Notes: generated by a model not told the origin, from the sequence alone. DNA of 64,000 bases from an uncultured delta proteobacterium (GCA_963802945.1 CAWDKY010000017.1:288001-352000), one strand, 5' to 3'; counted from the stretch's first letter, positions 29,753 to 54,362 are shown. A program made the numbers and translations.

Positions 29753-29808
29753 GAGAGTTAACTTTTTTTGAAATTATTCAAGAAACCTATTAGAAGGGGA
29801 ATTTAAAT

Positions 29809-30291: not shown

Positions 30292-30399
30292 TTAGCATGG
30301 CAATAAATGTGTTCATTATTAACGGCGTCTTCAAAGCATCTTGGCGCATGGGGGGAGATTTCTTCCCGTGGTTGGAGCCTTTATCATCCAAATTGATTG

Positions 30400-31356: not shown

Positions 31357-31386
31357 CGTTCAAATCCCCCTCTTTTCAAATATTTT

Positions 31387-31670: not shown

Positions 31671-31706
31671 GCATGGAAGATTCCCTGCATCTGGTCCAGA
31701 AAATCT

Positions 31707-32885: not shown

Positions 32886-32886
32886 A

Positions 32887-34266: not shown

Positions 34267-34267
34267 C

Positions 34268-35765: not shown

Positions 35766-35901
35766 ATTACATCCCTCCTTCTTTGCCAGAATTGGCTCCC
35801 AAAGGGAACCAAGCTTTATTACTAAGTTCTCATGCCCCTTTGAAACATTGCAAAGCATGAAAATATTTTCACTAAACGACGAACGTTCTTTTTGTAATAC
35901 A

Positions 35902-36348
35902 TTATGACAATGTCTTTTCCCTTGAGCCATTAATATAATTCTCAAGGGCCTGTCGCAAGGTGTTCTGGGCCAATAAGGCGCAATGTCTTTCTTCTTCAGG
36001 AATTTGTTGAAACTGTTGCAAGATCGTTTCCTGATCAATATCCCCAGCCTCTTCTACGTCTTTCCCTTTGGCCAGGTCCGTAGCAATGGATGCGCAGGCC
36101 CGGCTGATGGCACACCCATTTACTTGGAATCGACTATCAATAATTTTGTTGCCCTGTATCTTAAGAGAAAACTCCATGGTATCTCCGCAGGGGCCGGTCA
36201 CCCGGGCATAACCATCCGGTTGCTCCATGGTTCCCTCATTGTATGAGGTAAAACCGGATTGGATAATTTTTTCGGAAAGGGATAGCTCTCTTTTCTCTTC
36301 TCCTTTGTAAGCAGACATGACTATAGTTTTGCTGTCACTTGAAGACAT
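35902..36348 (-). CDS. NifU/IscU-like Fe-S scaffold protein
   Basis: GPCGD, GCAISRACAS, R.HCA.LA...L. Confidence 0.85.
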   Translation of the reverse strand: MSSSDSKTIVMSAYKGEEKRELSLSEKIIQSGFTSYNEGTMEQPDGYARVTGPCGDTMEFSLKIQGNKIIDSRFQVNGCAISRACASIATDLAKGKDVEEAGDIDQETILQQFQQIPEEERHCALLAQNTLRQALENYINGSREKTLS

Positions 36349-36354
36349 CGCTGA

Positions 36355-37242
36355 TTAACCTCCCTTTTTTTCATTAAGCAATTGTTCTTGTATCTTTTTC
36401 AAGATATTTTCAATTTTTTTCCCCAGGCCGTTACGGCTCAATTCCGGGATGGTTTTCCCCTGGATCATGGCTTCGGTTACCACCGGGTCATAAGGGAGAT
36501 GCCCGGCCACTTCCAGGCCTTTATCCCGGCAATAGGTTTCAATCCGGTCGGACATCTCCTGATTCAGATCATATTTGTTGATGAGGACCGTACCTGGAAT
36601 CTTGAAATGACCGGCCAAATCGAGTACCCGGTTTAGATCATGCAGCCCTGAGAGGGTCGGTTCGGTGACGATCAAAACACCGTCTGCTCCGGTGAGTGAA
36701 GAAATGACCGGACAGCCGATGCCCGGCGGACCATCCACCAAAATCAAGGGCAGCCCTTTGGCCTCGGCTAGTTGCTGAGCTTTACCGCGGATAAGGGCCA
36801 CCAGCATCCCTGAATTCTCCTGTCCCGCGCCCAACTGGGCATGGACCATGGGTCCAAACCTCGTTTCGGAAACAAACCATTCCCCGCATAGGGCTAAAGG
36901 AAATTCTATGGCATCGACAGGGCAAAAATGGACACACACACCGCATCCTTCACAGGAGGTCGGGTCCACCCGAAAGTCTTCACTGATGGCCTCAAAACGG
37001 CAAGCTAACCGGCATTGCCCACACTCCGTGCATAATTCCTGGTTAATGACCGCCTTCCGTCCCCCCATGTATTCTTCCCGGCTTTTGATCTCGGGTGCAA
37101 GTAATAAATGCAGATCCGGGGCATCCACATCACAGTCGACCAGAACTTTATTCGGAACTATGGCGGCCAGGGCTCCCACCAGGCTGGTTTTGCCGGTGCC
37201 GCCTTTTCCACTTAAAACACATAATTCTTTTGGTTTATTCAT
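36355..37242 (-). CDS. MinD-type P-loop ATPase with inserted ferredoxin (ORP cluster)
   Basis: SGKGGTGKT, DCDVDAP, two 4Fe-4S motifs, DGPPGIGCP, TEPT. Confidence 0.9.
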   Translation of the reverse strand: MNKPKELCVLSGKGGTGKTSLVGALAAIVPNKVLVDCDVDAPDLHLLLAPEIKSREEYMGGRKAVINQELCTECGQCRLACRFEAISEDFRVDPTSCEGCGVCVHFCPVDAIEFPLALCGEWFVSETRFGPMVHAQLGAGQENSGMLVALIRGKAQQLAEAKGLPLILVDGPPGIGCPVISSLTGADGVLIVTEPTLSGLHDLNRVLDLAGHFKIPGTVLINKYDLNQEMSDRIETYCRDKGLEVAGHLPYDPVVTEAMIQGKTIPELSRNGLGKKIENILKKIQEQLLNEKKGG

Positions 37243-38086
37243 TGGAATATTTTTCTATCGGTCCCTTGATTTTTTCAAAAAGAACTTGAAATTGTTCCTT
37301 CAACTCGGGACGTATTTCAACGAGCGATTGTCCCTTCGCATAACCTTCGGCAATCCGGCGTTCAAATGGTATTTCCATTAGTAAAGGGATTCCTTTGGAT
37401 TGCAGATAGGTCTTGGTCTCATTATTTCCAACGTCGGCCCGGTTCAGGATCACACCACAAGGAATATCTAAAGTTTTTAAAGCCGCTATGGCCAACTTTA
37501 AATCAAAAAGGCCGAAAGGAGTCGGTTCGGTCACCAGGATGGTATAATCCGATCCTTTGACGGTCTGGACCACAGGGCAGGAAGTCCCCGGTGGGGCATC
37601 CAGTATGGCCAATATGTCATTCTTAATCCGCTTTTTAACCTCCCGGATCAAAGGAGGAGACATGGGTTCCCCGACCCGCAGCCGGCCATGAACAAAATGA
37701 ATGGAACCGGTCCAGCCCTCCTCAATTTCTCCCAATTCTTTCTGTGAAGGGATCAAGGCCTTTGGCTCACAGACCAGAAAGCAACCACCACAGGCATGAC
37801 ACATTTCAGGAAACGTAATGATTGTTTCTCCCAACACCAGGATGGCTTTGAACTGGCACAACTTCGAACAGGCCCGGCAATAGGTGCATTTTTCTTCATC
37901 AACCTGCGGGATCTGGAGATAAACCGTCTCTTTTTTCTCCCAACGGGGTTTCATGAAAATGTGTCCGTTGGGGGCTTCTACATCACAATCTAAAAGCTGC
38001 ACCGGTTCTTTCAGGGACAAGGCCAGGGCCACAGCCACACTGGTTTTGCCTGTTCCGCCTTTGCCGCTGGCTACACTAATGATCAC
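37235..38086 (-). CDS. MinD-type P-loop ATPase with inserted ferredoxin (ORP cluster)
   Basis: ASGKGGTGKT, DCDVEAPN, two 4Fe-4S motifs, DAPPGTSCP, TEPTPFG. Confidence 0.9.
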   Translation of the reverse strand: MIISVASGKGGTGKTSVAVALALSLKEPVQLLDCDVEAPNGHIFMKPRWEKKETVYLQIPQVDEEKCTYCRACSKLCQFKAILVLGETIITFPEMCHACGGCFLVCEPKALIPSQKELGEIEEGWTGSIHFVHGRLRVGEPMSPPLIREVKKRIKNDILAILDAPPGTSCPVVQTVKGSDYTILVTEPTPFGLFDLKLAIAALKTLDIPCGVILNRADVGNNETKTYLQSKGIPLLMEIPFERRIAEGYAKGQSLVEIRPELKEQFQVLFEKIKGPIEKYSNE

Positions 38087-39323
38087 AAACGTTTTCTCCG
38101 GTAATCAAGGTTTGATTGATATAATGGGCAACCAATTCCTCCAGACCCAATTGCGGCGCCCCGGTTAATACCTTGATGCCCTGTTCATTGAAAAGGCTGA
38201 TCGCCCTCTGGCCCATGCCGCCGGCAATAATCAGATTAACCCCTTTTTCTCCCAACCAACGCGGCAGGAGGCCGGGTTCATGGGGAGGAGGGGTGACCAT
38301 TGTTTTATGGACAATGTTCTTCCCTTGTAAATCGATCAGGGCAAACTGTTCGCAGTGACCAAAATGATTACAAAGGATACCCTCAGCCATGGGGATGGCA
38401 ATCTTTACACTGTCAACTATTTGATTATTGGAATCCATTTCAGATATAACCTCCGTTATTGGTTTTATTATTTCCTTTCGGGCTTGGTTGGCTGTAAAGA
38501 CTATTTTATCGATAATACCCTCCAGGGCAGTTTTAACAGCCTGGGACAAGGCATGAAAAAGATAAGCCTCTCCTTGATCGCCCATTTCCATTAGCCGGAT
38601 ATCAAAAGGGATACTTCCCAAAAAGGGGACTTGCATTAAAACGGCCGTTTGTTTCCCCCCGCCTTTTTTGAATATGGCCGACTCCTGTCCGCAATGAGGA
38701 CAGATATAACCGCTCATGTTTTCCACCAATCCCAATATAGGCATTTTGACCTGACGGCAAAAATTGATGGATTTTCTGACATCGGATAAGGAGATCTCTT
38801 GGGGGGTGGTAACAATGATCGCCTGGGCATCTGGGATGGTCTGGGCCACGGTCAGGGGCTCATCGCCTGTTCCCGGCGGGGAATCGATGATCAAGAAATC
38901 CAAGTCGTCCCAAATGACATCGGCAAGGAACTGGCGAATGACACCGATTTTTACAGGCCCCCGCCAGATGGTTGGGGCATCCTTATCGGGCATCAGCACC
39001 TCAATAGAGATCATTTTTAAATTGGCATTTACAGGCACTGGAGAAATTCCCTTTTCCGGTTCAAAGGAGGCTAGGCCGCCACGTCCGAGCATCCGCGGGA
39101 TACTGGGACCATGGAGGTCCACGTCCATAAGTCCGACCTGAAAGCCTTTTTGAGCTAGTCCGGCGGCCAGGTTTACGGCCAAACTACTTTTCCCCACGCC
39201 CCCCTTTCCGCTCATGACCAATAATTTATTCTTAATCCGGGATAATGACTTGTTAATTAAGACATCCTCGGCCCTCCTCTGGGATTCGTGTTCCATATTG
39301 GAATCCTGCGCACAACCACTCAT
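38076..39323 (-). CDS. MrpORP: Mrp/NBP35 ATPase fused to NifB/NifX-like domain
   Basis: SGKGGVGKS, DSPPGTGDE, CPHC, then KIAIP...HFGHC...PPHEPG...GGMG...CDH. Confidence 0.9.
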   Translation of the reverse strand: MSGCAQDSNMEHESQRRAEDVLINKSLSRIKNKLLVMSGKGGVGKSSLAVNLAAGLAQKGFQVGLMDVDLHGPSIPRMLGRGGLASFEPEKGISPVPVNANLKMISIEVLMPDKDAPTIWRGPVKIGVIRQFLADVIWDDLDFLIIDSPPGTGDEPLTVAQTIPDAQAIIVTTPQEISLSDVRKSINFCRQVKMPILGLVENMSGYICPHCGQESAIFKKGGGKQTAVLMQVPFLGSIPFDIRLMEMGDQGEAYLFHALSQAVKTALEGIIDKIVFTANQARKEIIKPITEVISEMDSNNQIVDSVKIAIPMAEGILCNHFGHCEQFALIDLQGKNIVHKTMVTPPPHEPGLLPRWLGEKGVNLIIAGGMGQRAISLFNEQGIKVLTGAPQLGLEELVAHYINQTLITGENVCDH

Positions 39324-39530
39324 ATCTGAAACTCCTTTCAACTTTGTTTTTTGTTTTAAATTTTTCTTTATTTTCAAAAACTATTTTTCTCTAACACTCT
39401 TTTGTTTCTTACAGAGTTCACAGAGAGCACCGAGTTTGAGCCCCACCCCCGGAGGAGCGAGAGGTGGGCCCCCTTCAGGGGTGGGACTCGCCCGGCGTTT
39501 GCCGGAAAGGTATTTCTTTCTTTTTTATCT

Positions 39531-39737
39531 TTATTCCCGAACCATAGTGGTCCCGCAGTTGGGACATTTCTTTATATTGCAGGGAATCCCCCGGGCATGG
39601 GGGCTCTTCTGACCACATTTAGGGCAGACACAATTTCCGCCGGCTCCCATACCGGCACCCCTACCCATTCCTCGTCCTGATCCGAGACCTCCACCGGAAC
39701 CTTTTCCGGCCGGGCCGGTACCATCTCTTCTGGGCAT
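39531..39737 (-). CDS. Small Gly-rich, Cys-rich zinc-finger-like protein
   Basis: MPRRDGTGP start with AGGAG RBS; CVCPKCG...PC...CPNCG. Confidence 0.75.
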   Translation of the reverse strand: MPRRDGTGPAGKGSGGGLGSGRGMGRGAGMGAGGNCVCPKCGQKSPHARGIPCNIKKCPNCGTTMVRE

Positions 39738-39830
39738 AACTCCTCCTATCTTTTTTGTGACTTGAGATGTTTCTCTGTTACTTTTGTTAATTCTGCAATC
39801 CGTATTCCGCAATCTAAAATTGAAGCTGGT

Positions 39831-40196
39831 TTATCCCCAATGCCCCTCAACATTAGGGGACTCGGCAAAGTTGAGTTTCCCTTGTTTATATTGATCAATA
39901 GCCTCCTGAACTTTCCCGGAAATTCCCACCGCCACTTTGATCCCGGCGGCCTGGAGCACTCTAAAGGCCTTGGGGCCGCAATTGCCGGTTAAGACCATCT
40001 TTGCCCCATGTTCCACAACCGTTTGAGCAGCCTGAATCCCGGCGCCTTGAGGCAATTGTAGGTTCTGTCTGTTTTCTAAAACCTCAAATTTCATTGTTTC
40101 CGGATCGACCAATAAGAAAAATCCGGCTCTTCCGAAACGAGGATCGATTTCAGAATCCAGGGTATTTCCTTTGGAACTGACAGCTATTTTCATCAT
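39831..40196 (-). CDS. Orange protein-like NifB/NifX-family Mo-Fe cluster-binding protein
   Basis: MKIAVSS...DPRFGRA, GAGIQAA, TGNCGPKAF, PNVEGHW. Confidence 0.88.
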   Translation of the reverse strand: MMKIAVSSKGNTLDSEIDPRFGRAGFFLLVDPETMKFEVLENRQNLQLPQGAGIQAAQTVVEHGAKMVLTGNCGPKAFRVLQAAGIKVAVGISGKVQEAIDQYKQGKLNFAESPNVEGHWG

Positions 40197-40233
40197 TTCT
40201 TCCTTTTTTTTGAGATTACCTATCATATTTCCA

Positions 40234-40419
40234 TCACCCTTCTTTAATGGTGATTGCCCCTGTTTCACAGACCTCAATGCAACTCTCACAACCCAAACAC
40301 TCATCGGGATTGACTGCTACTGCCTTATTATCCCGAAGTTCAAAAACCTCAACCGGGCAGACCTCCACACAATTACCGTCGCCTATACATTTCTCGGTAT
40401 CTACTGCAACTATAAACAT
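40234..40419 (-). CDS. Small dicluster ferredoxin
   Basis: CIGDGNCVEVCP (Asp at second ligand position) and CLGCESCIEVC; GAGG RBS. Confidence 0.85.
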   Translation of the reverse strand: MFIVAVDTEKCIGDGNCVEVCPVEVFELRDNKAVAVNPDECLGCESCIEVCETGAITIKEG

Positions 40420-40772
40420 CCTCTTCGCCTCCCTTGTCTTTTCCTTGCCCGGCAACAGGGCACATTCAATTTTCCTCCCAAGTATTCTTCAATGATGATA
40501 TCCACTTCCCCGTAAAGGGGATAGGCCACCTGGATTCCGAAACGATTCAATCCATTTCTGTCTTCAAGGCGAATACCGCCGCAGATCAATTGTCTTATGC
40601 CCAATCGTTTTAAATAAATTATTTTTTCATCCGGCGGCCAGTCGCTGATATCCAGCTCTCTTTTTTCCACCAGTTGGTCTTTCTCAATTTCCAGGACCAA
40701 TAACTTCCTGGCACAGTCCAGCCGTGGAGAGATGCGATCTAAAAAAATTGGGATTGCCACTTTCATCATCAT
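40410..40772 (-). CDS. NifB/NifX-family protein
   Basis: MKVAIP...RISPRLD.A, LICGGI. Confidence 0.8.
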   Translation of the reverse strand: MMMKVAIPIFLDRISPRLDCARKLLVLEIEKDQLVEKRELDISDWPPDEKIIYLKRLGIRQLICGGIRLEDRNGLNRFGIQVAYPLYGEVDIIIEEYLGGKLNVPCCRARKRQGRRRGCL

Positions 40773-40792
40773 CAGTCCTCTCCTATTATCAA

Positions 40793-40808
40793 TTCAAGAA
40801 GGATGCCA
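40793..40808 (-). promoter_or_regulatory. Candidate sigma54 -24/-12 promoter of the ORP operon
   Basis: TGGCAT-CCTTC-TTGAA (GG-N10-GA, one deviation from GG-N10-GC) about 20 nt before the first ORP gene. Confidence 0.55.
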
Positions 40809-40877
40809 AGAGATCACCTGATTATATATTCTAATAAAATGAAATGGTTATGGTGAGGCAACGAGAATTAGAGGTTT

Positions 40878-40922
40878 AATGAAACTATTGCAAAATGCAA
40901 TAGTTTCATTGCAAAATTGCAA
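40878..40922. promoter_or_regulatory. Palindromic upstream activator site and/or terminator
   Basis: Perfect 15-bp inverted repeat AATGAAACTATTGCA-aaa-TGCAATAGTTTCATT plus a second TTGCA-N4-TGCAA. Confidence 0.55.
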
Positions 40923-40941
40923 TTTACAATCTGAGAGAGAA

Positions 40942-42273
40942 TTAAGGAACCCGTTTAAGCTTTCGCCAGAGGGTGGTGGGATGTAGTCCTAATTCCTTTG
41001 CGGCCAGGGTTCGATTTCCTTGGTATTTTTCCAGAGCCTTTTGAATCAATTCCTGTTCTTGGTCTTTCAGCTTTTTTTCGAATGAGAGGTGGGGATTGCC
41101 ACTTTCCTGGGTGCCTCTTTGGTACTCCGGTGGCAGATGAGAGAGTTGTATGGTTGATCTATGGCAGAGCACAAAGGCATGTTCAATGATATTTTCCAAT
41201 TCCCGGATATTTCCAGGGTACTCATAGTGCATTAAAACCTGGAGAACCTTCGGAGATATCTGAGAAATCTTTTTACCGGTCCGGAGATTAAACTTATTAA
41301 GAAAATGTTCAATCAAAAGGGGAATATCTTCGCGGCGTTCTTTCAGGGGAGGCAAGTCTATCTGGACCACTTTAAGCCGGTAATAAAGGTCATCTCTAAA
41401 CGAACCATCTTTTATTAAGCCCTTAAGATTTTTATTGGTCGCCGAGATCAATCGGGCCTTAACCGGTCTGCTGACATTGGAACCCAAAGGCTCATAAGTT
41501 TTTTCCTGAAGGACCCTTAAAAGCTTGGCTTGTACTATCAGCGGAAGATCACCTATTTCATCCAAAAACAAAGTCCCGGAATCGGCCTGGGCAAACTTTC
41601 CCGGCTTGTCTTTTTTAGCATCGGTAAAAGCCCCGCGAACATAGCCGTAGAGCTCTGATTCCAGCAGGGTCTCCGGCAGGGCACTGCAATTGATGGCCAC
41701 AAAGGGTTTTTCTTTTCTGGGACTTAAATGATGGATGGCTTTGGCTAAAAGCTCCTTGCCGGACCCGCTGGGTCCCTGGATGAGAACGGCGCTGTCACTC
41801 TGGGCGATATCGGGAAGATTGTCGAATATTTTTTGCAGGGTATCACTCTTGCTGATGATGTCGTTCACGGTATACTTTTGGGTGATTTCTTTACGCAGGG
41901 CTTCGATAGCACTCAAATCCCGAAAGGTCTCAACCCCTCCCATCATCCTGCCCTGGCTGTCCTTCAAGACGGCGGTTGTTACGCTGATGGGGATGATCTC
42001 TCCCCGGGCATTTAATATATTGACCGGCAAATCGACCACATTTTTCCCGGTCTTTAAGGTCCTGGCCAAGGCACAAGAATCCTGGCAGATCTCGGCCTGA
42101 AAGATTTCAAAGCATTTCTTGCCGATCGCTTCTTCCCTGGGAAATCCGGTAATGGTTTCTGCCGCCTGATTAAAGGAGGTTATTCCCCGGTCTTTATTTA
42201 TGGTAAAGACCCCCTCAGTGATGCTATCTAAAATGATCTTCAAAAAAGGTGATGGCGGTTTGTTTTTCTCCAT
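40942..42273 (-). CDS. PAS-domain sigma54-dependent activator (OrpR-like)
   Basis: PAS with C...C, GPSGSGKE, GAFTDA, FLDEIGD, YPGNIREL, Fis-type HTH. Confidence 0.92.
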   Translation of the reverse strand: MEKNKPPSPFLKIILDSITEGVFTINKDRGITSFNQAAETITGFPREEAIGKKCFEIFQAEICQDSCALARTLKTGKNVVDLPVNILNARGEIIPISVTTAVLKDSQGRMMGGVETFRDLSAIEALRKEITQKYTVNDIISKSDTLQKIFDNLPDIAQSDSAVLIQGPSGSGKELLAKAIHHLSPRKEKPFVAINCSALPETLLESELYGYVRGAFTDAKKDKPGKFAQADSGTLFLDEIGDLPLIVQAKLLRVLQEKTYEPLGSNVSRPVKARLISATNKNLKGLIKDGSFRDDLYYRLKVVQIDLPPLKERREDIPLLIEHFLNKFNLRTGKKISQISPKVLQVLMHYEYPGNIRELENIIEHAFVLCHRSTIQLSHLPPEYQRGTQESGNPHLSFEKKLKDQEQELIQKALEKYQGNRTLAAKELGLHPTTLWRKLKRVP

Positions 42274-43174: not shown

Positions 43175-44833
43175 ATGACCGTAAAGTTATTGATAATCGG
43201 TGGTGTCGCGGGCGGGGCAACTGCTGCCGCCAGGGCCCGCAGGCTTGATGAATTTACTGAGATTATTCTCTTCGAAAGGGGGGAATACATATCCTTTGCC
43301 AACTGCGGCCTGCCCTATTACATAGGGAACGTAATAAAAAATCGGGACGATCTGCTGGTGACAACAGCGGAGGCATTCAAGGCCAGGTATAATATAGATA
43401 TAAGGATTTTCACAGAAGTGATAGGGATAGACAGGCTTCATAAACGGGTCAAGGTTAAAGATGTCATGACAGGAAGGGTATATGAAGAGACCTATGACAA
43501 AATTATACTTTCTCCAGGCGCTGAGCCTGTAAAACCCCCTATCAAAGGCATTGATCTGGAAAATATCTTCTCCCTGCGCAATATCCCTGACTCGGATCGG
43601 ATCAAGGCCCGTGTAGACGCCGACAGGCCTAATTCGGCGGTGATCGTCGGAGGCGGATTTATAGGACTTGAGATGGCAGAGAACCTTGTAATCCGGGGTG
43701 TAAAGACAACCATTGTTGAGATGCTTGACCAGTTAATGGCACCTCTTGATTATGAGATGTCGGTGATGGTTAGGGACCATCTGGAACAAAAGGGAGTCTC
43801 ATGTTATCTGGAGGAGGGGGTTGCGGGTTTTTCAGAAAAGGAAGGGCTTATCATTGTCCATACGGAAAAAAACAGGAATATAGAATGTGACCTGGTTATC
43901 CTGTCCATTGGGGTAAGGCCCGAGAACAGACTTGCCAGGGATGCCGGTCTGGCCATAGGAAACAGGGGAGGGATAAAGGTAAATGCGGCCATGAGGACAT
44001 CTGATTCGGATATATATGCCGTGGGGGATGCCGTGGAGATAAAAGACTTCATCTCAGGACTGCCGACCATGACGGCCCTTGCAGGCCCGGCTAATAAGCA
44101 GGGACGCATCGCGGCTGATAACGCCCTGGGAGGCAAATCCGTGTTTAAGGGGACCATAGGGACAGCGGTGGTAAAACTCTTTGACCTTACCGTTGCCTCT
44201 ACTGGGGCGAGCGAGAAGTCCCTGAGGCAAAACAATATCCCTTGTATGGTAAGCTATACCCACTCCAATTCCCACGCCTCCTATTATCCCGACGCTCAGA
44301 TGATGGCGATAAAGTTGATTTTTTCGCCATCAAACGGAAGGATTTTAGGGGCTCAAATCATCGGGATGGAGGGCGTGGACAAACGTATCGATGTATTAGC
44401 CACAGCCATAAGGGGCTCCATGACTGTTTTTGATCTGGAGGAACTTGAACTGGCCTATGCACCACCCTATTCATCGGCAAAGGACCCTGTTAATATAGCA
44501 GGATTTACGGCATCGAACCTTTTAAAGGGGGATGTGAGAAATATTTACTGGAGCGATATTCAAGGTCTTGACCCTGAAAAAGATGTCCTTATTGATCTGC
44601 GCGATAAAGTAGAACTGAATGACTCCGGAACTATCGAAGGATCGCTGAATATACCTTTAAATGAACTGCGCAAAAGGCTGCCTGAACTTGATAAAGAGAA
44701 GAACTATATTCTTTTTTGCGCTGTCGGCCTGAGGGGATACCTTGGCCACCGTATCCTTGACCAGAACGGATTCAAATCCAGAAACCTGAGCGGGGGATAT
44801 AAGACCTATATGATGGGCAGGGAAAAGATATGA
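43175..44833 (+). CDS. CoA-disulfide/persulfide reductase with C-terminal rhodanese domain (Npsr/CoADR-RHD)
   Basis: GGVAGG, SFANCGLPY, GGGFIGLE, GD, YAPPY, rhodanese CAVGLRG. Confidence 0.92.
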   Translation: MTVKLLIIGGVAGGATAAARARRLDEFTEIILFERGEYISFANCGLPYYIGNVIKNRDDLLVTTAEAFKARYNIDIRIFTEVIGIDRLHKRVKVKDVMTGRVYEETYDKIILSPGAEPVKPPIKGIDLENIFSLRNIPDSDRIKARVDADRPNSAVIVGGGFIGLEMAENLVIRGVKTTIVEMLDQLMAPLDYEMSVMVRDHLEQKGVSCYLEEGVAGFSEKEGLIIVHTEKNRNIECDLVILSIGVRPENRLARDAGLAIGNRGGIKVNAAMRTSDSDIYAVGDAVEIKDFISGLPTMTALAGPANKQGRIAADNALGGKSVFKGTIGTAVVKLFDLTVASTGASEKSLRQNNIPCMVSYTHSNSHASYYPDAQMMAIKLIFSPSNGRILGAQIIGMEGVDKRIDVLATAIRGSMTVFDLEELELAYAPPYSSAKDPVNIAGFTASNLLKGDVRNIYWSDIQGLDPEKDVLIDLRDKVELNDSGTIEGSLNIPLNELRKRLPELDKEKNYILFCAVGLRGYLGHRILDQNGFKSRNLSGGYKTYMMGREKI

Positions 44834-44954
44834 CAAAAGGATGTAGGAATGTCCTACGGCCGGGGATTAGGGAAGAGACAATCTGTTCAAAGATAAACGG
44901 CAAGAGTATAGAAGAAGGGAAAATTTATCCCTCACCCGGAGGGTCTTTATCAGG

Positions 44955-45218
44955 TCAGACCTTGGGGTTGGCGCCTTCTGGAAGTAAAGGAGGCAGCAAG
45001 AAAGAGTCAGGATTATGGGGCTTGGCTTCTGGGGTGACCATTGGAGAAACGGATGTGTCCGGACCTGAAGAATTTTTTTCCTCTTGAGAACACTCCTGCT
45101 GGGGATTAACCGGAACGGGGGTGGGATCTTTCTTGTCCAGGGCAAAAGAAAAAGACCCTAATAGAAAAAAAACAATAAAAGCCAGGGGCAGTTTCTTTAA
45201 TTGGTTTAAATTGGTCAT
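44955..45218 (-). CDS. Small secreted Pro-rich hypothetical protein
   Basis: AGGAAGG RBS, signal peptide ending SFA, low-complexity mature part. Confidence 0.5.
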   Translation of the reverse strand: MTNLNQLKKLPLAFIVFFLLGSFSFALDKKDPTPVPVNPQQECSQEEKNSSGPDTSVSPMVTPEAKPHNPDSFLLPPLLPEGANPKV

Positions 45219-45456
45219 GGCCTTCCTTTCTCTAACTGTTTTCTGCCCAGGGAAGAAGATTTTCTAGTTAGGTACTATACCGGGCAGCCTCCAATAATTC
45301 AATCATTCTTTTTTCCAGCATAATTCGGCGTGGAAAGTGGGCCACAGTGTAATATCTTTCTTCCCTAAAGATGATGGTCATGTAACAAATTAAAAATTGC
45401 TTATTTCTGCCATCCCCGTGAAAAGCGGTTCAGTAGGTTGACACTTCAGAAACGAT

Positions 45457-45495
45457 TAAGGCACCTTCTCAGAACGGGAAAGTGCCTTATTTTTT
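45457..45495. terminator. Probable intrinsic terminator after rhodanese gene
   Basis: TAAGGCAC...GTGCCTTA inverted repeat about 20 nt past the rhodanese stop. Confidence 0.55.
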
Positions 45496-45509
45496 CAAAT
45501 ATTGAGATA

Positions 45510-46403
45510 TTACGGCTCGACGGGTGCCTTGGGGTCTTTCATCCACTCCTCTGTTGATCCATCATATGTTTTTACGTTTTTATAACCCAGAAGATCGGTC
45601 ATGATAAAGGACCAGGCCGTGGAAACCTTGCCCGTATCGCAATAGAGGATGACCTCTTTGTTCGTGTCCGCTCCAATGACTGCTGTCACAAGGGCAGCGA
45701 GGTCCGCTTTGCTTTTAAATAGCCCTTCTTTTGTGTAGGCTTGTGAAGTCGGGAAATTGACCGCTCCTTTGATTCTCCCCGGTTTGGCGACGAAATCCAT
45801 TTTCTTTATTCCCTGGTAGAAATCAAGCTCTCTGACATCAACGATCATAACCTTACCGATGGCATTCATAACATAGTCTTTATTGGCGAGCATAACTTCC
45901 TTGGCCTTGACTTGATACTTAGTCGGTTTGGATTTTACTAGGTCTGTGGAAAGGGTCTTTTTATCAGCTGCCCACTTGTCGAAACCTCCATCCAGGATAG
46001 CCACATCCCCGATACCTGCGTATTTGAGAGTCCAGGCAACCCGAGAGATATCGGTGCGGTTCGGGATCGTATCGGCTTTTCCAACGATAACGACCAGCGA
46101 TTCGGGACCAATACCGGCGGCGCTGATAACATCAGAGAGGTCGTCCAAAGGGGGGATCTCGTTTCTCAAACCGCCTTTCATAATAGCCCAGGAACCATAG
46201 ATGACATTGAGCGCCTTGGGGATATGCCCAGTCTTATAATCTTCGACCTTCCTGATGTCGACGATGATAAGTTTCGGGTTATTGATATTTTTTTCCAGCC
46301 AATCGGTGGATACAATGGGTTCGATATCTCTCGCCATGGAGGCGAAAGGAATGATGAGCCCAAGAAGAACTAAAACGAGGCTAAGCCTAAGTGATCTTTT
46401 CAT
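45510..46403 (-). CDS. Secreted tandem-domain rhodanese/sulfurtransferase
   Basis: Signal peptide ending ASMA, GHIP.A, LDGG..KW, active-site YCDTGKVS, YDGS..EW. Confidence 0.92.
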   Translation of the reverse strand: MKRSLRLSLVLVLLGLIIPFASMARDIEPIVSTDWLEKNINNPKLIIVDIRKVEDYKTGHIPKALNVIYGSWAIMKGGLRNEIPPLDDLSDVISAAGIGPESLVVIVGKADTIPNRTDISRVAWTLKYAGIGDVAILDGGFDKWAADKKTLSTDLVKSKPTKYQVKAKEVMLANKDYVMNAIGKVMIVDVRELDFYQGIKKMDFVAKPGRIKGAVNFPTSQAYTKEGLFKSKADLAALVTAVIGADTNKEVILYCDTGKVSTAWSFIMTDLLGYKNVKTYDGSTEEWMKDPKAPVEP

Positions 46404-47677
46404 TATTTTTCTCCTTTTATTGGTTTTGGTTTATAAAGTAAACATTCGTTTGCTTTGGAACCGTTCTTGATCAGAGCTTCTTTTGTCAGGAAACCTTTAT
46501 TCTCGACATGGCAGATCTCGCAGGAACGGGTCCGGTCGGTTCTCTTTTTAATGTTGTGTGCTGTTGTGTCCCAGTAGTTGGGGAGCGTGTCGTAACGGTT
46601 CATTTTAATCCCGGCGCTTTTAAAGGTGTCCCGGACTGTAGGGGTAAGCCGCAGGGTCGTTATAGTTTTTTTGTCTTTGGAGCTTAAACCGAGAAAGAAG
46701 TCCGGTTTGGATGTGGCCCCTTTTCCCAGGTGACAGCTGTAGCAATTTCTGTAAGCTCCTCCGGAGTGGCAGGCATAGCAGCTTACCCTGTCCTTGTGTT
46801 GGGCGTGGGAGGTCTTGGCCTTTTCCGTCTTTTCATCTCCCGCCTTATGACAGTTGATGCAGGCCGGCTTTTCCTTCACTTCCTTTTTTGTTTTGTAGGC
46901 CGTTGAGGTGCCATGAAATTCCGCCTTCTTATGGCAATCCAGGCAGGTCATTCCCTTTTGATAATGAATATCGGCCGCGCCGCCATACTCGCCTGTGAAT
47001 TCCGGGTACACCCGGCCTCCATGGCATACGGCACAGGTCTTTCCGTCATCCCTGGCGACGAACTTGTGATTCTGAATAAAACCTGTGCTGATCCCGCTTA
47101 CCTTGGGGGATTTTACATGGCAGTCGCCGCAGGAGGCATGACAGCTCCTGCAGGATTGCTGGAATACCTTTTTGTCGAATATCCCCAGATCTTTTTTTGA
47201 GAACCTTCCTGAAACTCCATGGCGAAAGCCGGCAGTGGTGAAATGAAGGGAGTTTTTATAGGTCTGGGGTGCATCTTCATGGCATTGGCCGCAAAGCTTA
47301 TGATCTGCTGAAGGTTTTTTCACCACCCCGATATGGGCCTTGGACTTATCCTCGGCCTTATCATTCCCCTTGTGACAGAAAACGCACCCTCCGACTAAAT
47401 GGGGTTCGGTTTTGATCAGCTTTTCATCAACAAGGAACGCTTTATATTGCAGTTCCGCCGGGACCGACGGAGGGGCACCTGCTCACCCTTCCCCGGCTTC
47501 GATGGCTACCTTAACGGGTTTGTGGAGCGTCTGGAGCAGCTTTTCACTCGTGTGGCATTTCACGCAACTGCTTTCGCCGGCGTAGGTCAAGTAAAAAGAT
47601 AAGGAAAGAGAGGCAACCAGAAAACCAACAATGGTCCATACTATCTTGGTTTTTCTTTTTACCTGAACAGATTTCAT
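46403..47677 (-). CDS. Secreted 11-heme cytochrome c, predicted selenoprotein (TGA 47485-47483 = Sec65), 424 aa
   Basis: ORFs 47483-47692 and 46403-47326 are in one frame joined by TGA and 52 open codons containing another CxxCH; 11 CxxCH motifs in total; SECIS-like hairpin follows the TGA. Confidence 0.85.
47449..47482 (-). promoter_or_regulatory. SECIS-like hairpin
   Basis: GCAG/CUGC lower stem, UCCGUCG/CGGCGGA upper stem, GUCC apical loop 18 nt after UGA. Confidence 0.75.
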
Positions 47678-47753
47678 GAAACCCTCGGTCAATAGACAAT
47701 AGAACGCAACCTTTATTATACAGCATTAAAAAGGCAGGTCATCAAACTCTATA

Positions 47754-48116
47754 TTATCCTTCATGGCATCCGTGCTCATGTTGACTGCAGGCAATTCCGG
47801 AATCGCTCAATTTGCCTGTGAGCCAACTTTCGGCAACATTTTTTACATTGCCGGAACATCCTCGCAAAACCTGGATGCCGTGGCTGGTTAAAACATTTAC
47901 TGCTCCTTGTCCCATATTGCCGGCCAGCATATATTTTACACCCATTTGTGCCAATATTTGAGCAATATCTGATTTACAGCCACAACCAGCCGGAGGTGTA
48001 ATCCTTTCCTCTGAAAGTATTTTGTTTTTGTCACCAATAGTGAAAACCGTGAAGCATTCGCAATGCCCAAAGTGTTCATCCACCTGATCCTGACATGAAG
48101 GTAATGCTATTTTCAT
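47754..48116 (-). CDS. NifB/NifX-family metal-binding protein
   Basis: MKIALP...VDEHFGHC, GCGCKS, LAGNMG.GA, C..H.H.CH tail. Confidence 0.88.
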   Translation of the reverse strand: MKIALPSCQDQVDEHFGHCECFTVFTIGDKNKILSEERITPPAGCGCKSDIAQILAQMGVKYMLAGNMGQGAVNVLTSHGIQVLRGCSGNVKNVAESWLTGKLSDSGIACSQHEHGCHEG

Positions 48117-48460: not shown

Positions 48461-48479
48461 ATTGCATGGAGGAAAATAT

Positions 48480-48797
48480 ATGGAGGATAGAATCATTGCC
48501 TTGGAGGCAGAAATTTTAAAGGCCCTGGCCCAGCCCACTCGATTGAAAATCCTCGAATGCTTACGTGAAGGGGAGCGGTGCATCTGCGAGATCGTGCCGG
48601 TTATTAACGGCGAGCAATCCAACATCTCCAGACATATTTCCCTGATGCAGAAAACCCGATTAATTTCTTCACGCAAGGACGGAGTGAAGGTCATGTTGAA
48701 GATTCAAGATCCGCAGATTTTCGACCTCCTGGATCGGGTAAATAAAATTTTGAAGAGGCAGATGCAAGAACAAAATAAATTAATGGCGAAATTGTAA
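48480..48797 (+). CDS. arsR: ArsR/SmtB-family repressor
   Basis: KALAQPTRLKIL..L..GERCICEI...QSNISRH; heads ars operon. Confidence 0.88.
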   Translation: MEDRIIALEAEILKALAQPTRLKILECLREGERCICEIVPVINGEQSNISRHISLMQKTRLISSRKDGVKVMLKIQDPQIFDLLDRVNKILKRQMQEQNKLMAKL

Positions 48798-48818
48798 TCT
48801 GCCGACAAGGAATGATTT

Positions 48819-49766
48819 ATGATTAAATATTTGGCCGACTTATTGGTTTATCAGTGGATAGGAATTCAGTCTGGGACCAGGTTGGGAGAATCTTTAGACT
48901 TTTTCTTCTATGATACTATAAAAGTTTTTTTGCTCCTCATAGTAATTATTTTTGTAGTGGCGATCATACGGAGTTTCTTTCCCCCTGAGCGCTCACGTAA
49001 ACTGCTTGGTCATCGAAGGGAGTATGTAGGAAACTTTCTGGCAGCTTTATTGGGCATCGTTACGCCCTTTTGCTCCTGCTCCGCCGTACCGATGTTTATC
49101 GGCTTCATCGAATCGGGTCTGCCTTTAGGCATAACTTTCTCTTTTCTTATTTCCTCACCGACTGTAAATGAAGTGGCTCTGGTCATGCTCTGGGGCTTGT
49201 TTGGATGGAAGATTGCCCTTCTCTATACCGCTACAGGGGTTGTTATGGCCTTTTTTGCCGGTATCGTTATCGGAAAATTGAAATTAGAGCATCTGGTTGA
49301 AGAATATGTTTACCGGATCAAGATGGGTGAAGCGGAAATGTCCGTTCCTACCTGGAAAGAAAGGCTGGAATACGCTCGTGACTATACGAAAGATATACTC
49401 AGACGGGTATGGTTGTTCGTTCTTATCGGCATTGGATTAGGGGCCTGGATTCATGGTTATGTTCCTATGGATTTTATTATAAAATACGCAGGGCCCGGCA
49501 ACCCATTTGCCGTGTTTGTGGCGGTTCTTATCGGCATTCCCTTATACTCTAACGCCGCTGGGACAATCCCTATCGTTCAAGCCCTGGTAGAAAAAGGACT
49601 TCCTATGGGCACGGCGCTGGCTTTTATGATGTCCTTTGTGGCCATATCGACGCCCGAGTTGATTATCCTGCGCAAGGTTATTAAACCGAAGTTGATTGCT
49701 ATTTTCGTCGGGATTGTCTCTGTGGCGATTATCATCATCGGCTATCTGTTCAATGCCGTTTTATAA
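48819..49766 (+). CDS. arsP: ArsP/DUF318-family permease
   Basis: TPFCSCS.VP, FSFLISSP.VNE, GIPLYSNAAG. Confidence 0.85.
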   Translation: MIKYLADLLVYQWIGIQSGTRLGESLDFFFYDTIKVFLLLIVIIFVVAIIRSFFPPERSRKLLGHRREYVGNFLAALLGIVTPFCSCSAVPMFIGFIESGLPLGITFSFLISSPTVNEVALVMLWGLFGWKIALLYTATGVVMAFFAGIVIGKLKLEHLVEEYVYRIKMGEAEMSVPTWKERLEYARDYTKDILRRVWLFVLIGIGLGAWIHGYVPMDFIIKYAGPGNPFAVFVAVLIGIPLYSNAAGTIPIVQALVEKGLPMGTALAFMMSFVAISTPELIILRKVIKPKLIAIFVGIVSVAIIIIGYLFNAVL

Positions 49767-49783
49767 AGAGGAGGTAAAGAGTC

Positions 49784-50017
49784 ATGAAAAAGATCGAAGT
49801 ACTTGGAATGGGTTGCGCCAATTGCACTAAGTTATATCAAAATGTATTGGCAGCGGTCAAGCTGAGCGGTAATGAGGTAGAAGTTGCCAAGATTGAGGAT
49901 ATTCAAAAAATCATGTCCTATGGGGTGATGTCCACACCGGCTTTGGTCGTGGATGGTGTCGTCAAAGCCGTAGGCAAAATTCCGAAACCGGAAGAAATAA
50001 AGGAATGGATTAAATAA
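49784..50017 (+). CDS. Small thioredoxin-fold redox-active disulfide protein
   Basis: GMGCANC, YGVMSTPALVVDG. Confidence 0.9.
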   Translation: MKKIEVLGMGCANCTKLYQNVLAAVKLSGNEVEVAKIEDIQKIMSYGVMSTPALVVDGVVKAVGKIPKPEEIKEWIK

Positions 50018-50090
50018 AAATTGGATTATTTTTTATCTTAGCGTGGAATAAATCATTGCAAAAGATTCTGTATCTCTGAAGGAGGAAGAA

Positions 50091-51185
50091 ATGGAACAAG
50101 CCGTTGCTGTAAAGAAGTTATCTTTTCTGGATCGGTTTCTGACGCTGTGGATATTTTTGGCTATGTTTATTGGTGTAGGATCAGGATATCTCTATCCCAA
50201 AGTGGTTCATTTCTGGAATCTCTTCCAATATGACACTACAAATATCCCCATTGCCATCGGCCTAATCCTTATGATGTACCCTCCTTTAGCCAAGGTCAAG
50301 TATGAAGATCTGGGGGAAGTATTTAAAAATTATAAGGTACTTACGCTCTCTCTAGTCCAGAACTGGGTCATCGGCCCTATACTTATGTTCTTCCTGGCTA
50401 TTGTTTTTTTAGCTGGCTATCCTGAATACATGGTGGGCCTGATTATGATCGGCCTGGCCCGCTGCATCGCCATGGTCATCGTCTGGAATGAACTGGCCTC
50501 CGGGGACACCGAATACTGTGCCGGTCTGGTGGCCTTCAATTCCATCTTCCAGGTCCTTTTTTTCTCCCTCTATGCCTATATCTTTATCACCATCCTGCCG
50601 GGCTGGTTCGGCTTGAAAGGCACAGTAGTTGACATCTCCATCGGCCAGATCGCTAAAAGTGTATTTATCTATCTGGGCATCCCTTTTATCGCCGGGATCA
50701 TCACCCGATTCACCCTGATCAAAATCAAGGACAAGACCTGGTATCATGAAAAATTCATCCCCAAAATCAGCCCCATTACGCTGATCGCCCTGCTCTTTAC
50801 CATCATCGTCATGTTCTCCCTCAAGGGGGAATACATCGTCCAATTGCCCCTGGATGTGATGCGCATCGCCTTGCCCCTGGTCATTTATTTTGTGATCATG
50901 TTTTTCATTTCCTTTTATCTGTCCATAAAAGTCAAGGCAACTTACGAGCAGTCCGCCACCTTGAGTTTTACCGCTGCCTCTAATAATTTCGAGCTGGCCA
51001 TCGCCGTGGCCGTAGCAGTCTTTGGCATCAACTCCGGTGCGGCCTTTGCCGCCGTCATCGGCCCTCTGGTTGAAGTGCCGGTCCTGATCAGCCTGGTCAA
51101 TGTAGCCCTCTGGTTTAAGAAACAATATTTTCCCTATGCGCTGGAGACGCCCACCGGGGTGTGCCACGTCAGTTGTAAACCATGA
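50091..51185 (+). CDS. acr3: ACR3-family arsenite efflux transporter
   Basis: [44 protein letters not shown]. Confidence 0.96.
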
Positions 51186-51254
51186 GGCAGAAGTTAGGCC
51201 GGAGGAAATAGGCGAGAGGGAAAGAACCTCAAAGAAAAAAGACAGGGTATTTTC

Positions 51255-51686
51255 GTGAAGGAAAAACCGAAAATTCTTTTTCTATGCACCGGCAATTCCT
51301 GCCGGAGTCAAATGGCCGAGGCCTGGGCTCGAGCACTGAAGGGGGATCAGTTGGAGCCTTTTTCGGCCGGGATTCGACCCAAAGGAGTGGATCCGAGAGC
51401 GGTTACGGTCATGGCGGAAACGGGTATTAATATTTCTCACCAAAAAGCCAAAGATATAAATTCACTTGGTGATATGGAATTTGATTTCGTGGTGACCTTG
51501 TGCGACAACGCCCGGGAGTCCTGCCCCTTCTTTCCGGCAAAAACGAAATTACTCCATAGGGGTTTTGAGGATCCTCCGGTCCTGGCTGCTCAGGCCAAAA
51601 GCAATGATGAGGCCATGATACCTTATCGTCGAGTGCGGGATGAGATCAGGGCCTTTGTGGAAACGCTTCCCGACTCCTTGAAATAA
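51255..51686 (+). CDS. arsC: Arsenate reductase (LMW-PTP fold, thioredoxin-coupled)
   Basis: CTGNSCRSQMAE, LCD...CP.F, F.DP, RVRDEI. Confidence 0.95.
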   Translation: MKEKPKILFLCTGNSCRSQMAEAWARALKGDQLEPFSAGIRPKGVDPRAVTVMAETGINISHQKAKDINSLGDMEFDFVVTLCDNARESCPFFPAKTKLLHRGFEDPPVLAAQAKSNDEAMIPYRRVRDEIRAFVETLPDSLK

Positions 51687-52238: not shown

Positions 52239-54362
52239 ATGAGGAAAATCGATTATCAAAAAAATCTGAACAAGGCCCAACTGGAAGCGGTTTTCGCTGC
52301 CCGACGGCCCGACCTTGATTATCGCCGGGGCCGGAAGCGGGAAAACCCGAACCCTGGTTTATCGGGTGGCCTGGTTGGTTGAAAACGGGATTCCACCGGA
52401 AAGGATACTCCTTCTGACCTTCACCCGCAAGGCCTCCCAGGAGATGCTTCATCGGGTGGAAGCAAATGCTTAACCGATCCTGCCAGGAAGTGGCCGGGGG
52501 GACTTTCCATTCTCTGGCCTATAAAATTTTGAGGATTTACGGGGAGGCTATCGGTCTTAAAAAACCTTTGACCGTCTTGGATCGAAAAGACAGCGAAGAT
52601 CTTGTTGGCAAGATCATCAAAACCAAAAAATGGGAGAAAGAGAAGGATACCCCGGGCAAAAAAGAATTTATGGAACTGCTTAGCCGTTTGGTCAACCGGG
52701 GGCAAACCTTCGAAGATGGACTCTCCAATTTTTATTTCGAGAATGGGACTTCTCGATCGCCAAGCTCAAGGAAATACACACAGACTATGAAGATTTTAAA
52801 AGACAGCACGGCCTGTTGGATTATGACGACCTTTTAACCCAATGCCTGCTTCTTTTCCGACAGGAATCCAGGGTAGTCCGGAAATTATCCTCTTTTTATC
52901 AGTATGTCCTGGTGGATGAATATCAGGATACCAACCTGCTTCAGGCCGAAATGGTCCGTCACCTGGCCCAGGGGAACATTATGGTGGTGGGTGACGATTC
53001 CCAATCCATCTACGGATTTCGCGGCGCTCACTTTAAAAATATCTTCGATTTTCCCAACCAATTTCCCGGGACCCGGGTGATCAAGCTGGAAGAAAATTTT
53101 AGAAGTTCTCAGCCGATTCTGAACCTGGCCAACCGGATGATCAGTTCTTCCAAGGAACAATACAGCAAATGTCTCTTTTCCCGTTTTAAAAAAGGGGAGC
53201 CTCCTTACTGTATCGAACTGCCTTACGAAGAAGCCCAGTCTCAATTTGTCTCCCAGCAACTTCAGGAATTTCATGACCAGGGGATCCCCTGGCCGGAAAT
53301 GGCCGTTCTTTTTCGGGCCGGTCACCATTCATTCAATCTGGAGGTTTTTCTCCAAAAGGAGGGCATTCCTTTCAAGAAATACGGGGGACGTCGTTTTATC
53401 GAAGGGGCGCATATTAAAGATTTTTTGTCCTATTTAAAAGTGGTCCATAACCCCAGGGATGTTCTGGCCTGGGAAAGGATTTTGAAACTTCTGGAAGGCC
53501 TGGGTCCCAAAAGGGCTCAGGAGATCATAAGACAAGTGATGGGTTGTTCGGACTGGGGAGCAAGGCTGACCTGTCTTTCGAGCTATCCCCGTTTGAAATC
53601 CCAGCTTAAGGATTTTTCCGCTTTGTTTCAGGGATTGGTCGAGCAACCTCTATTGACCCCGACTCAGGCCTTGGAGTCGATCTGGGAGTATTATAAAAAT
53701 CTTCTGCCCGGCCTGTACGAAGAACCCCAGCGAAGAGAAAAAGAGATCGAAGAAATTATTCGACTCAGTTATAATTATTCCGAGACGGAGGCCTTGCTGG
53801 GGGATTTGAGCCTGGAGGTCTATGAAGAGCCGGAAGATCGGGAAGAAGATTGCTTGACCCTGTCCACAGTTCATTCGGCCAAGGGTCTGGAGTGGAGGAT
53901 CGTCTTTATCATTTGGCTTACGGAAGGCCGGTTTCCTTCATCCCAGTCCATGATGGACCCCGAGGAAATGGAAGAAGAAAGACGTTTACTCTATGTGGCC
54001 ATCACCCGGGCCAAGGAGAGACTTTTTTTGACTTACCCTCAGGCCCTTTCTTATAGAGGCGGAGGCTGGCAGAAGAATGACCTGTGTCATTTTATCGCCG
54101 ATATTCCCGAAGATCTGCTGCCGAGAAAGGGGGAGGCCGGTTCTTAATCATTCAAACGAGAGTTATTCGCCTCAGGTTAGTGAAATTTCCCAAAGAAAAT
54201 GATGACGGTTTTTCAATGGGGACGAAAGTCTTTCATCCCATCTTCGGCAACGGGGTAATCCAAGAGCCTCCGAAAGAGAGAAAGGTCCGGGTTCTTTTTA
54301 AACGCTATGGGTCCAAGGTGTTGCACCTGGATTATGCCCGTTTGGAAAAGGGGGATGCCTGA
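52239..54362 (+). CDS. ATP-dependent DNA helicase PcrA/UvrD family; about four frameshifts (near 52295, 52460, 52745, 54130)
   Basis: [65 protein letters not shown]-terminal Tudor-like VFHPIFG.G. Confidence 0.88.

Follow-up and report, generated by a model that had tools for sequence, protein, structure and literature searches.

How a multiheme cytochrome gene interrupted by a TGA codon comes to stand directly before a gene for a secreted rhodanese is the question raised by a 64,000-nucleotide stretch of DNA from an uncultured delta proteobacterium (GCA_963802945.1 CAWDKY010000017.1:288001-352000; hereafter the window). Two points have to be settled: whether the TGA encodes selenocysteine (Sec), and what a Sec-containing cytochrome might do beside a sulfurtransferase. 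The first-pass annotation of the window had placed the two proteins in a trans-envelope sulfane-sulfur module of three parts, the third being a cytoplasmic CoADR-rhodanese fusion encoded nearby. Our analysis upholds the pair of Sec cytochrome and rhodanese, which is conserved in other genomes, and drops the fusion, which is convergent, separately terminated and found beside the pair in none of the other loci surveyed. With moderate confidence, we favour a self-contained two-gene periplasmic unit that reduces sulfane sulfur.

The in-frame TGA of the cytochrome gene

When the TGA is read as Sec, the cytochrome gene forms a single open frame (46403..47692, minus strand). Its probable start is the ATG at 47677, which has GAGGG five bases 5' of it. 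The Sec residue (U65) lies in the loop EAGEG-U-AGAPPSVP, 23 residues past the first heme histidine. Of 401 genomes sampled from the phylum, 42 have a homologue (match at E ≤ 1e-30), and each of the 44 matches contains exactly one in-frame TGA. The codon occupies the same aligned column in 30 of 30 fetched loci, with the coding sequence conserved on both sides of it; recurrence of this order goes far beyond chance. The homologues fall into two clades, a close one with GEG-U-AGAPP at 53-64% identity and a distant one with GEG-U-GG at 31-36% identity. Species-representative genomes gave at least 593 matching stretches, the best 80 of which were used as further loci, a set overlapping the phylum sample in some genomes; TGA is present in 78 of these 80, CGA in one, and one was not readable. 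A profile search of 1.84 billion representatives returned 1763 relatives at E ≤ 0.001. Of these, 150 were listed. The Sec column is covered by 45 of the listed sequences, all full-length distant representatives, and 14 of them have Cys in place of Sec, in the context G-[U/C]-G-G. By alignment, such a replacement in distant relatives is the classical Sec/Cys signature.

Gene callers almost always split the family. In public protein sets, 113 of the 120 homologues listed are cut N-terminally just past the Sec codon, and the annotated 69-aa and ~350-aa "cytochrome c3 family" fragments belong to one selenoprotein. Metabolic reconstructions of syntrophs, anaerobic digesters, peat and sediments therefore leave the family out.

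A hairpin resembling a selenocysteine insertion sequence (SECIS) follows the TGA (Table 1). In the close clade the hairpin and its invariant GU are kept in 17 of 17 relatives, and the stem hardly varies, so that covariation is uninformative there. The distant clade has an 8-bp stem with a GUU loop and compensatory changes in three of eight pairs. In both clades the loop GU lies 21-23 nt from the U of the UGA, although the encoded peptides differ. The window hairpin is no more stable than shuffled sequences (z -0.08), so it is conservation that supports it; Rfam gave no match to a SECIS family in the region. We take the loop positions to be like those of Escherichia coli fdhF. The genome, which is in 72 contigs with completeness given as 100%, contains Sec machinery, namely tRNA-Sec, SelB (266 bits, over the cut-off) and SelA (627 bits). 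Conserved UGA, SECIS stem-loop, machinery and Cys homologues, the generic marks of a bacterial selenoprotein, are all present. Judged from these comparisons, the in-frame TGA truly encodes selenocysteine. Short contigs from four metagenome runs (90-99% alike) span parts of both genes and their junction, and are too fragmentary to serve as evidence; one such contig spans the TGA, with no difference there among the rows listed.

As a separate observation, three genes in this genome appear to be split over adjacent open reading frames or over different frames: SelB falls into three pieces, and a QrcB-like gene and a UvrD-like helicase into two each (G000 C30:178945-180834; C53, L075 376-2752; window 52466-54144). 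These may be frameshifts or assembly errors in the 72-contig genome.

The heme chain and the rhodanese partner

The cytochrome matches multiheme Pfam families, and no NCBIfam model reaches its cut-off for it. Conservation was computed over 104 Sec-type relatives, among which the 11 CXXCH motifs and only nine other His are invariant, while Met243 is 95% conserved; the alignment of relatives revealed no invariant Cys beyond the CXXCH motifs and the Sec column. With nine invariant distal His for 11 motifs, at least one heme has no conserved His sixth ligand. Probably two hemes are of this kind, as in active-site hemes, and a catalytic heme in the cytochrome is plausible.

Both proteins appear to be exported, as the first-pass annotation had proposed. 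Read by eye, the cytochrome N-terminus (MKSVQVKRKTK...TYA/GE) has a basic n-region, a hydrophobic stretch and an A-x-A-like end, and that of the rhodanese (MKRSLRLS...SMA/RD) is similarly signal-peptide-like, a feature conserved in its orthologues. In the C-terminal rhodanese domain, all 13 aligned orthologues share Y254, C255, D256 and G258 without change; at the corresponding place the N-terminal domain carries no Cys. The two genes are joined as had been read earlier: the cytochrome TAA (46405-46403) shares one base with the rhodanese ATG (46403-46401), giving TAATG. The hairpin claimed downstream of the pair is also there, 20 nt past the rhodanese stop (z -2.97, a fold matched by one of 200 shuffles). 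It is followed by a weak U-tract, and a simple terminator scan did not list it. Upstream, a sigma-70-like match sits in the 76-nt gap between a NifX-like gene and the cytochrome start. A scan for sigma-54 promoters gave 26 matches against 23 expected, none of them before the cytochrome or the CoADR gene, and these were set aside.

The neighbourhood survey covered 114 loci, 34 at ±8-9 kb and 80 at ±2.5 kb, with some genomes in both sets. Rhodanese partners were detected by tblastn with Pfam added, and in the distant clade by Pfam on four representatives. In the close clade, a rhodanese adjoins the cytochrome in 14 of 16 loci by tblastn, being upstream in two loci, and one of the two loci without it stops at a contig edge. 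The next downstream gene encodes a rhodanese-family member in 19 of 20 loci of the distant clade, mostly ~150-aa secreted single-domain forms with CKSGGRS. Among the further 80 loci, tblastn found a rhodanese in 64 (61 downstream, 3 upstream), and Pfam adds three of the other 16 (L113 and L152 upstream, L136 two genes downstream). Two of those 16 have no downstream room, four have a large second cytochrome next and end before the following gene, and the remainder show superoxide dismutase, TAT-flavoprotein or unknown genes. Since a rhodanese is adjacent in most loci, the cytochrome-rhodanese pair is a conserved unit. That the Sec cytochrome and the secreted rhodanese form a functional pair is supported by this co-occurrence, which the first-pass annotation had suggested looking for; of the CoADR fusion and the ars genes, on its list as well, the former recurs in none of the 114 loci and the latter in one.

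Carriers of the cytochrome are mostly strict anaerobes, including Syntrophorhabdaceae, Smithella and Syntrophus, together with metagenome-assembled genomes (MAGs) of Nitrospirota. Geobacter sp. OR-1 and Desulfonema magnum 4be13 are cultured carriers. The gene was found in none of 10 genomes of the same genus and none of 13 of the same family as the window genome. In a tree of 34 sequences the window cytochrome falls inside the group of another family (f2), as sister to that of an uncultured Syntrophorhabdus MAG (L012; support 98/92). This pattern fits horizontal acquisition. Housekeeping genes share the 512-kb contig of the cytochrome gene, which makes mis-binning unlikely.

Table 1. Coordinates of the features at the locus, counted from the first letter of the window
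Feature	Position	Strand	Basis
Periplasmic 11-heme c-type cytochrome selenoprotein gene (predicted), 424 aa including U65	46403..47677	-	TGA read as Sec, CXXCH motifs, Pfam
In-frame TGA read as selenocysteine codon, residue 65, GEG-U-AGAPP	47483..47485	-	Conservation, hairpin, Sec machinery
SECIS-like hairpin, 7-bp stem, GUCC loop, loop G 19 nt after UGA	47454..47471	-	Folding, conservation
Sigma-70-like promoter match, ATGACC-16-TATAAT, 10/12	47715..47742	-	Consensus scan, pattern match only
Secreted tandem-domain rhodanese gene (predicted), 297 aa	45510..46403	-	PF00581, 113 bits over two stretches
Codon of active-site Cys255, YCDTGKVS, C-terminal rhodanese domain	45639..45641	-	Located in translation, orthologue alignment
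Terminator-like hairpin ending the two-gene unit, 12-bp stem	45457..45489	-	Folding
CoADR-like flavoprotein-rhodanese fusion gene	43175..44833	+	Pyr_redox_2, Pyr_redox_dim and Rhodanese domains
87-aa open reading frame, signal-peptide-like start, proline-rich tail	44955..45218	-	Between rhodanese terminator and CoADR gene
Stand-alone PF02579 (NifX/orange-protein-like) domain gene, not NifB	47754..48116	-	Domain matches

Proposed chemistry and rival readings

A precedent for a Sec-containing multiheme cytochrome is MccSep/ExtKL (GSU2937-2936) of Geobacter sulfurreducens, a pentaheme protein that reduces polysulfide and selenite and that S0 respiration depends on (Mihara et al., Sci Adv 2026; PMC13510729). 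This precedent makes a role as sulfur or selenium reductase more plausible for the window cytochrome, and the pair probably acts in the periplasm as a Sec-dependent reductase of sulfane sulfur or polysulfide (or selenium) carried by the rhodanese. In the mechanism that we propose, the rhodanese would take sulfane sulfur, or possibly selenium, from polysulfide or S0 as a persulfide on Cys255. Attack by the selenolate of U65 on this persulfide, or on free polysulfide, would then form a Se-S adduct beside a heme that has no conserved His as its sixth ligand, and electrons arriving through the heme chain would cleave the adduct and release sulfide. The U65 loop is glycine-rich and, in the model, probably mobile, which recalls the mobile loop of MccSep. 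The substrate, the direction of electron flow, the transfer from Cys to Sec and the electron donor are parts of this scheme that we infer.

Other genomes suggest how electrons could reach such a pair. In six of 14 close loci (L043, L047, L048, L050, L051 and L052) an extended operon continues after the pair with three further genes, encoding a multiheme cytochrome of 600-760 aa, a second tandem rhodanese of ~260 aa (in five of the six) and a ~620-aa fusion of a multiheme cytochrome with cytochrome b561, which weakly matches formate dehydrogenase gamma. Another locus, L041, has upstream a multiheme cytochrome (555 aa) that belongs to this cluster and has no b561 match. Some distant loci adjoin a separate cytochrome b561 gene. 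A MtrB/PioB-like porin and MtrC-like cytochromes are encoded beside the pair in L071, whose gene cluster is shared by L072, and YeeE/YedE-type sulfur transport genes stand beside it in L138. From their sequences, the b561 fusion and porin genes are plausible electron-input or outer-membrane parts. It had been noted earlier that no porin or quinol oxidase is encoded alongside the pair; this is true of the window, and some other genomes do encode one there.

A number of observations weigh against the reading of the pair as a reductase of sulfane sulfur. Seven full-length close-clade homologues (P0028, P0035, P0038, P0040, P0079, P0096 and P0110) carry R, S, A, W, Y, W and A at the Sec site, never Cys. 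The Sec codon was lost several times independently in this clade: the forms without it are scattered on the tree, requiring six changes, at least three of them forced by well-supported branches, so that the cytochrome can evidently persist without a chalcogen at site 65. The two W variants may be TGA read as Trp by the gene caller, and a word-based search with the N-terminal 55 residues for full-length non-Sec forms found nothing. The locus with CGA at the Sec site, L116, has no rhodanese match within 2.5 kb; its next gene encodes a large second cytochrome, beyond which the locus is too short for a further gene to be judged. At some loci, such as L040/L088, L081 and L083, the fetched DNA contains no rhodanese, and a superoxide dismutase gene is found instead. 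No RNA sequencing run was listed as containing the locus. The AlphaFold2 model of the cytochrome, built from 34 sequences, is mediocre (mean pLDDT 69, below 50 in the Sec loop); Foldseek found nothing in the PDB that matches it at E ≤ 0.001, none of 48,161 chains compared by VIA-align reached Z ≥ 2, and a PDB sequence search reached at best E 7.6e-4, over short heme-motif stretches only. These results are uninformative on the cytochrome fold. No electron donor is encoded in cis in the window, and tblastn at E ≤ 1e-6 found no homologue of the extended-operon cytochromes in the window genome. That genome has five frames with three or more CXXCH motifs, including QrcA (over the cut-off), the split QrcB-like gene and a TmcA-like tetraheme cytochrome c3; a QrcA/QrcB-like complex and the tetraheme cytochrome c3 are the only candidates for electron input seen in it. 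A search of the genome for dsrA found none, which together with only five such frames makes for a thin respiratory context. Finally, selenium or another chalcogenide may just as well be the substrate.

If the two-gene sulfane-sulfur reductase reading is nevertheless correct, Se-dependent multiheme reductases would be no Geobacter curiosity but a recurrent solution, present in at least 593 stretches of species-representative genomes, and a sulfur (or selenium) electron sink would be added to organisms usually modelled as obligate syntrophs. A bolder form of it, which we put forward tentatively and hold to be rather doubtful, is that the family represents a second, independently evolved class of Se-dependent multiheme enzymes, in which Sec acts without a helper Cys at or on the iron of a heme without a His sixth ligand and receives sulfur directly from a dedicated periplasmic rhodanese. 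Were this so, an unrecognised molybdenum-free respiration of S0 or polysulfide, or a handling of selenium or thio-arsenic compounds, would exist in many syntrophic Desulfobacterota and Nitrospirota, the window genome without dsrA among them.

A different substrate is the core of a further alternative, in which the pair detoxifies or reduces selenium, tellurium or arsenic-sulfur species, the rhodanese binding selenium or thio-metalloids and the cytochrome reducing selenite or selenopersulfide to Se0 or selenide. We consider this unlikely. MccSep also reduces selenite, but it prefers polysulfide and does not turn over arsenite (PMC13510729). The Geobacter ext genes go under the NCBIfam name "selenite/tellurite reduction operon", and its models are matched weakly by the two proteins of the pair, the cytochrome at about 40 bits for ExtM/N/O and the rhodanese at 50.8 bits for ExtH (NF040901, cut-off 200); these scores are far under the model cut-offs, which run from 200 to 800 bits. 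The first-pass annotation had also seen a possible metalloid link in an ars operon. In the window, a divergent operon arsR-arsP-thioredoxin-like-ACR3-arsC (48462-51686) does lie about 1 kb off, beyond the NifX-like gene and a small DUF134-like open reading frame. That link finds little echo elsewhere, since ars genes stand beside the pair in only one of 114 other loci, that of Geobacter sp. OR-1 (L139 2501-6224). The layout there is also different, with arsR and then arsP (62% identity) directly downstream of the pair on the same strand, whereas in the window the operon is divergent and two genes apart. The adjacency in the two genomes, in unrelated arrangements, may be chance.

Another possibility is that the cytochrome is an electron carrier or part of an extracellular conduit, with a structural or redox-buffering Sec and the rhodanese as a bystander. 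Weak matches to MtrC/MtrF domain and DmsE-type models, the porin and MtrC-like cytochromes beside some distant loci, and the seven homologues with non-chalcogen residues at the Sec site agree with it. We think it quite improbable, because a costly Sec kept in nearly all members, the exchange of Sec with Cys in distant clades and the near-universal adjacency of a rhodanese are difficult to account for unless that residue takes part in chemistry, and because only nine invariant distal His serve 11 hemes.

The reaction could also run the other way, as an oxidation of thiosulfate, sulfide or polysulfide like that of TsdA or SoxAX, with electrons passing through the heme chain to periplasmic acceptors. 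Multiheme sulfur enzymes are able to work both ways, and thiosulfate is also among the substrates of rhodaneses. For MccSep, its authors note that the reaction may be related to TsdA/SoxAX chemistry in reverse (PMC13510729). We rate the oxidative direction as very unlikely for the window pair: an electron sink would be more useful to carriers that are mostly strict anaerobes of syntrophic lineages, a conserved His/Cys heme ligand is missing because no Cys is invariant outside the CXXCH motifs and the Sec column, and the co-encoded cytochrome b fusions, by their weak formate dehydrogenase gamma match, resemble quinol-oxidising subunits.

The least likely reading, highly improbable in our view, is the three-part trans-envelope module with the cytoplasmic fusion as an Npsr-type CoA-persulfide reductase: only 676 nt separate the convergent stops, rhodanese domains lie on both sides, and Cys44 and Cys515 make a persulfide-reductase role reasonable for the fusion alone, but no such fusion occurs in the 114 neighbourhoods, the gene runs on the opposite strand from a ribosome-binding site of its own, the two units are parted by a terminator-like hairpin and a further open reading frame, no transporter linking the compartments is encoded between the units, and several CoADR-like paralogues exist elsewhere in the genome.

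Neighbouring genes and known systems

The convergent position of the fusion gene, about 0.7 kb away, had been described correctly. AGGAGG precedes its ATG, Cys44 lies in SFANCGLPY, and Cys515 belongs to the C-terminal rhodanese domain. Against TIGR03385 the protein scores 507 bits, with a cut-off of 578.8. Two genomes of the survey encode a ~29-31% identical flavoprotein near the cytochrome, with no rhodanese domain in the same frame, and CoADR-like paralogues at 34-38% identity are found elsewhere in the window genome, for example on contigs C27 and C30. We presume the fusion to resemble the CoADR-RHD/Npsr-type CoA-persulfide reductases. Like them it combines a pyridine-nucleotide disulfide oxidoreductase with a C-terminal rhodanese and carries Cys44 and Cys515; it does not accompany the cytochrome-rhodanese pair at any of the other loci examined. 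The only Rfam match in the region, a sub-threshold one to V_AS7, a Vibrio antisense RNA, at 43200-43365 on the minus strand (42.5 bits against a gathering score of 90) was rejected as spurious; it is antisense to the conserved 5' end of the CoADR gene and probably an echo of the coding sequence.

The 87-aa open reading frame, which the first-pass annotation had not mentioned, has its own hairpin (44929-44943) and no family match, and it was discarded as a partner, being found in none of the 114 loci. Upstream of the pair, the first-pass annotation had called a NifB/NifX protein; the NifX-like PF02579 domain is there, as a stand-alone domain, and NifB is not. This gene matches the C-terminus of the MrpORP model at 70.7 bits and is an extra paralogue. 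Neither it (2 of 80 loci) nor the small DUF134-like/zinc-ribbon open reading frame (1 of 80) was retained as a partner. Neither the CoADR-rhodanese fusion nor the NifX-like gene nor the ars operon is kept as a partner of the pair across genomes, and the three-part module is for that reason not supported; on present comparisons they are neighbours, not parts.

Two further gene sets in the window deserve mention. The minus-strand region 35433-42273, together with 47754-48116, resembles the Desulfovibrio gene set for the "orange protein" (ORP) complex, together with its sigma-54 regulator. It comprises a DUF5320 protein, two CbiA/MinD-type proteins with 4Fe-4S motifs, a Mrp/NBP35-NifX fusion, two further NifX-like proteins, a ferredoxin and a PAS sigma-54 activator. 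At 24770-35296 there is a cluster of Fer4_8/CCG-domain (HdrD/LldEF-like) proteins with an FAD-linked oxidase, which suggests a lactate/glycolate-type dehydrogenase with heterodisulfide-reductase-like subunits.

Of the known systems, the Sud-Psr pair of Wolinella succinogenes is one in which Sud, a rhodanese-like protein of the periplasm, passes sulfur from polysulfide on to a terminal reductase. The window pair is similar in that a rhodanese-family sulfur carrier, likewise secreted, is encoded together with the periplasmic terminal reductase that it presumably serves. It differs in the reductase, which is there a membrane-anchored molybdopterin enzyme and here a Sec multiheme cytochrome, and in the carrier, Sud being a small single-domain protein whereas the window rhodanese is a tandem one; the distant clade of the family does use single-domain rhodaneses of ~150 aa. 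ExtH (NF040901), a lipoprotein of the Geobacter ext operon, also belongs to the rhodanese family and has a Sec multiheme cytochrome encoded next to it. Unlike ExtH, the window rhodanese has an ordinary signal-peptide-like start in which no lipobox was seen, and its best NCBIfam match is the 3-mercaptopyruvate sulfurtransferase model NF008557 (78.6 bits, cut-off 250).

A full-text search of the literature found no description of an 11-heme Sec cytochrome. The table of a 2026 review, as available in PMC13188914, gives as cytochrome-related prokaryotic selenoproteins ExtKL, a GSU2204-family CXXCH protein and an octaheme tetrathionate-reductase type, and contains nothing like the 11-heme family.

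The closest comparison is with MccSep. Both are periplasmic multiheme c-type cytochromes with one Sec on a glycine-containing loop, both are encoded with an in-frame UGA and a downstream hairpin and are split in two by annotation, and both have a rhodanese-like protein in the operon, that of Geobacter being ExtH by its NCBIfam name; in the available part of the MccSep paper, rhodanese appears only in the title of a reference (PMC13510729). The differences concern the heme number, 11 here against five, and the place of Sec, which is residue 65 of 424 near heme 1 (GEG-U-AG) in the window protein and residue 325, on a mobile DG-U-P loop of a C-terminal Ig-like domain, in MccSep. Heme 2 of MccSep has a strictly conserved Cys as sixth ligand (PMC13510729), and the window family has no conserved Cys heme ligand. 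The MccSep model NF040886 (cut-off 250 bits) gave no match for the cytochrome even at E ≤ 10 and none anywhere in the genome. By this model, the heme count, the Sec position and the Cys ligand, the cytochrome is outside MccSep/ExtKL, and by the five-heme criterion of its authors the window family should also lie outside their lists of MccSep homologues (PMC13510729). If the proposed role is correct, the two families would offer a natural comparison on why selenium, and not sulfur, is needed to cleave chalcogen-chalcogen bonds at a heme.

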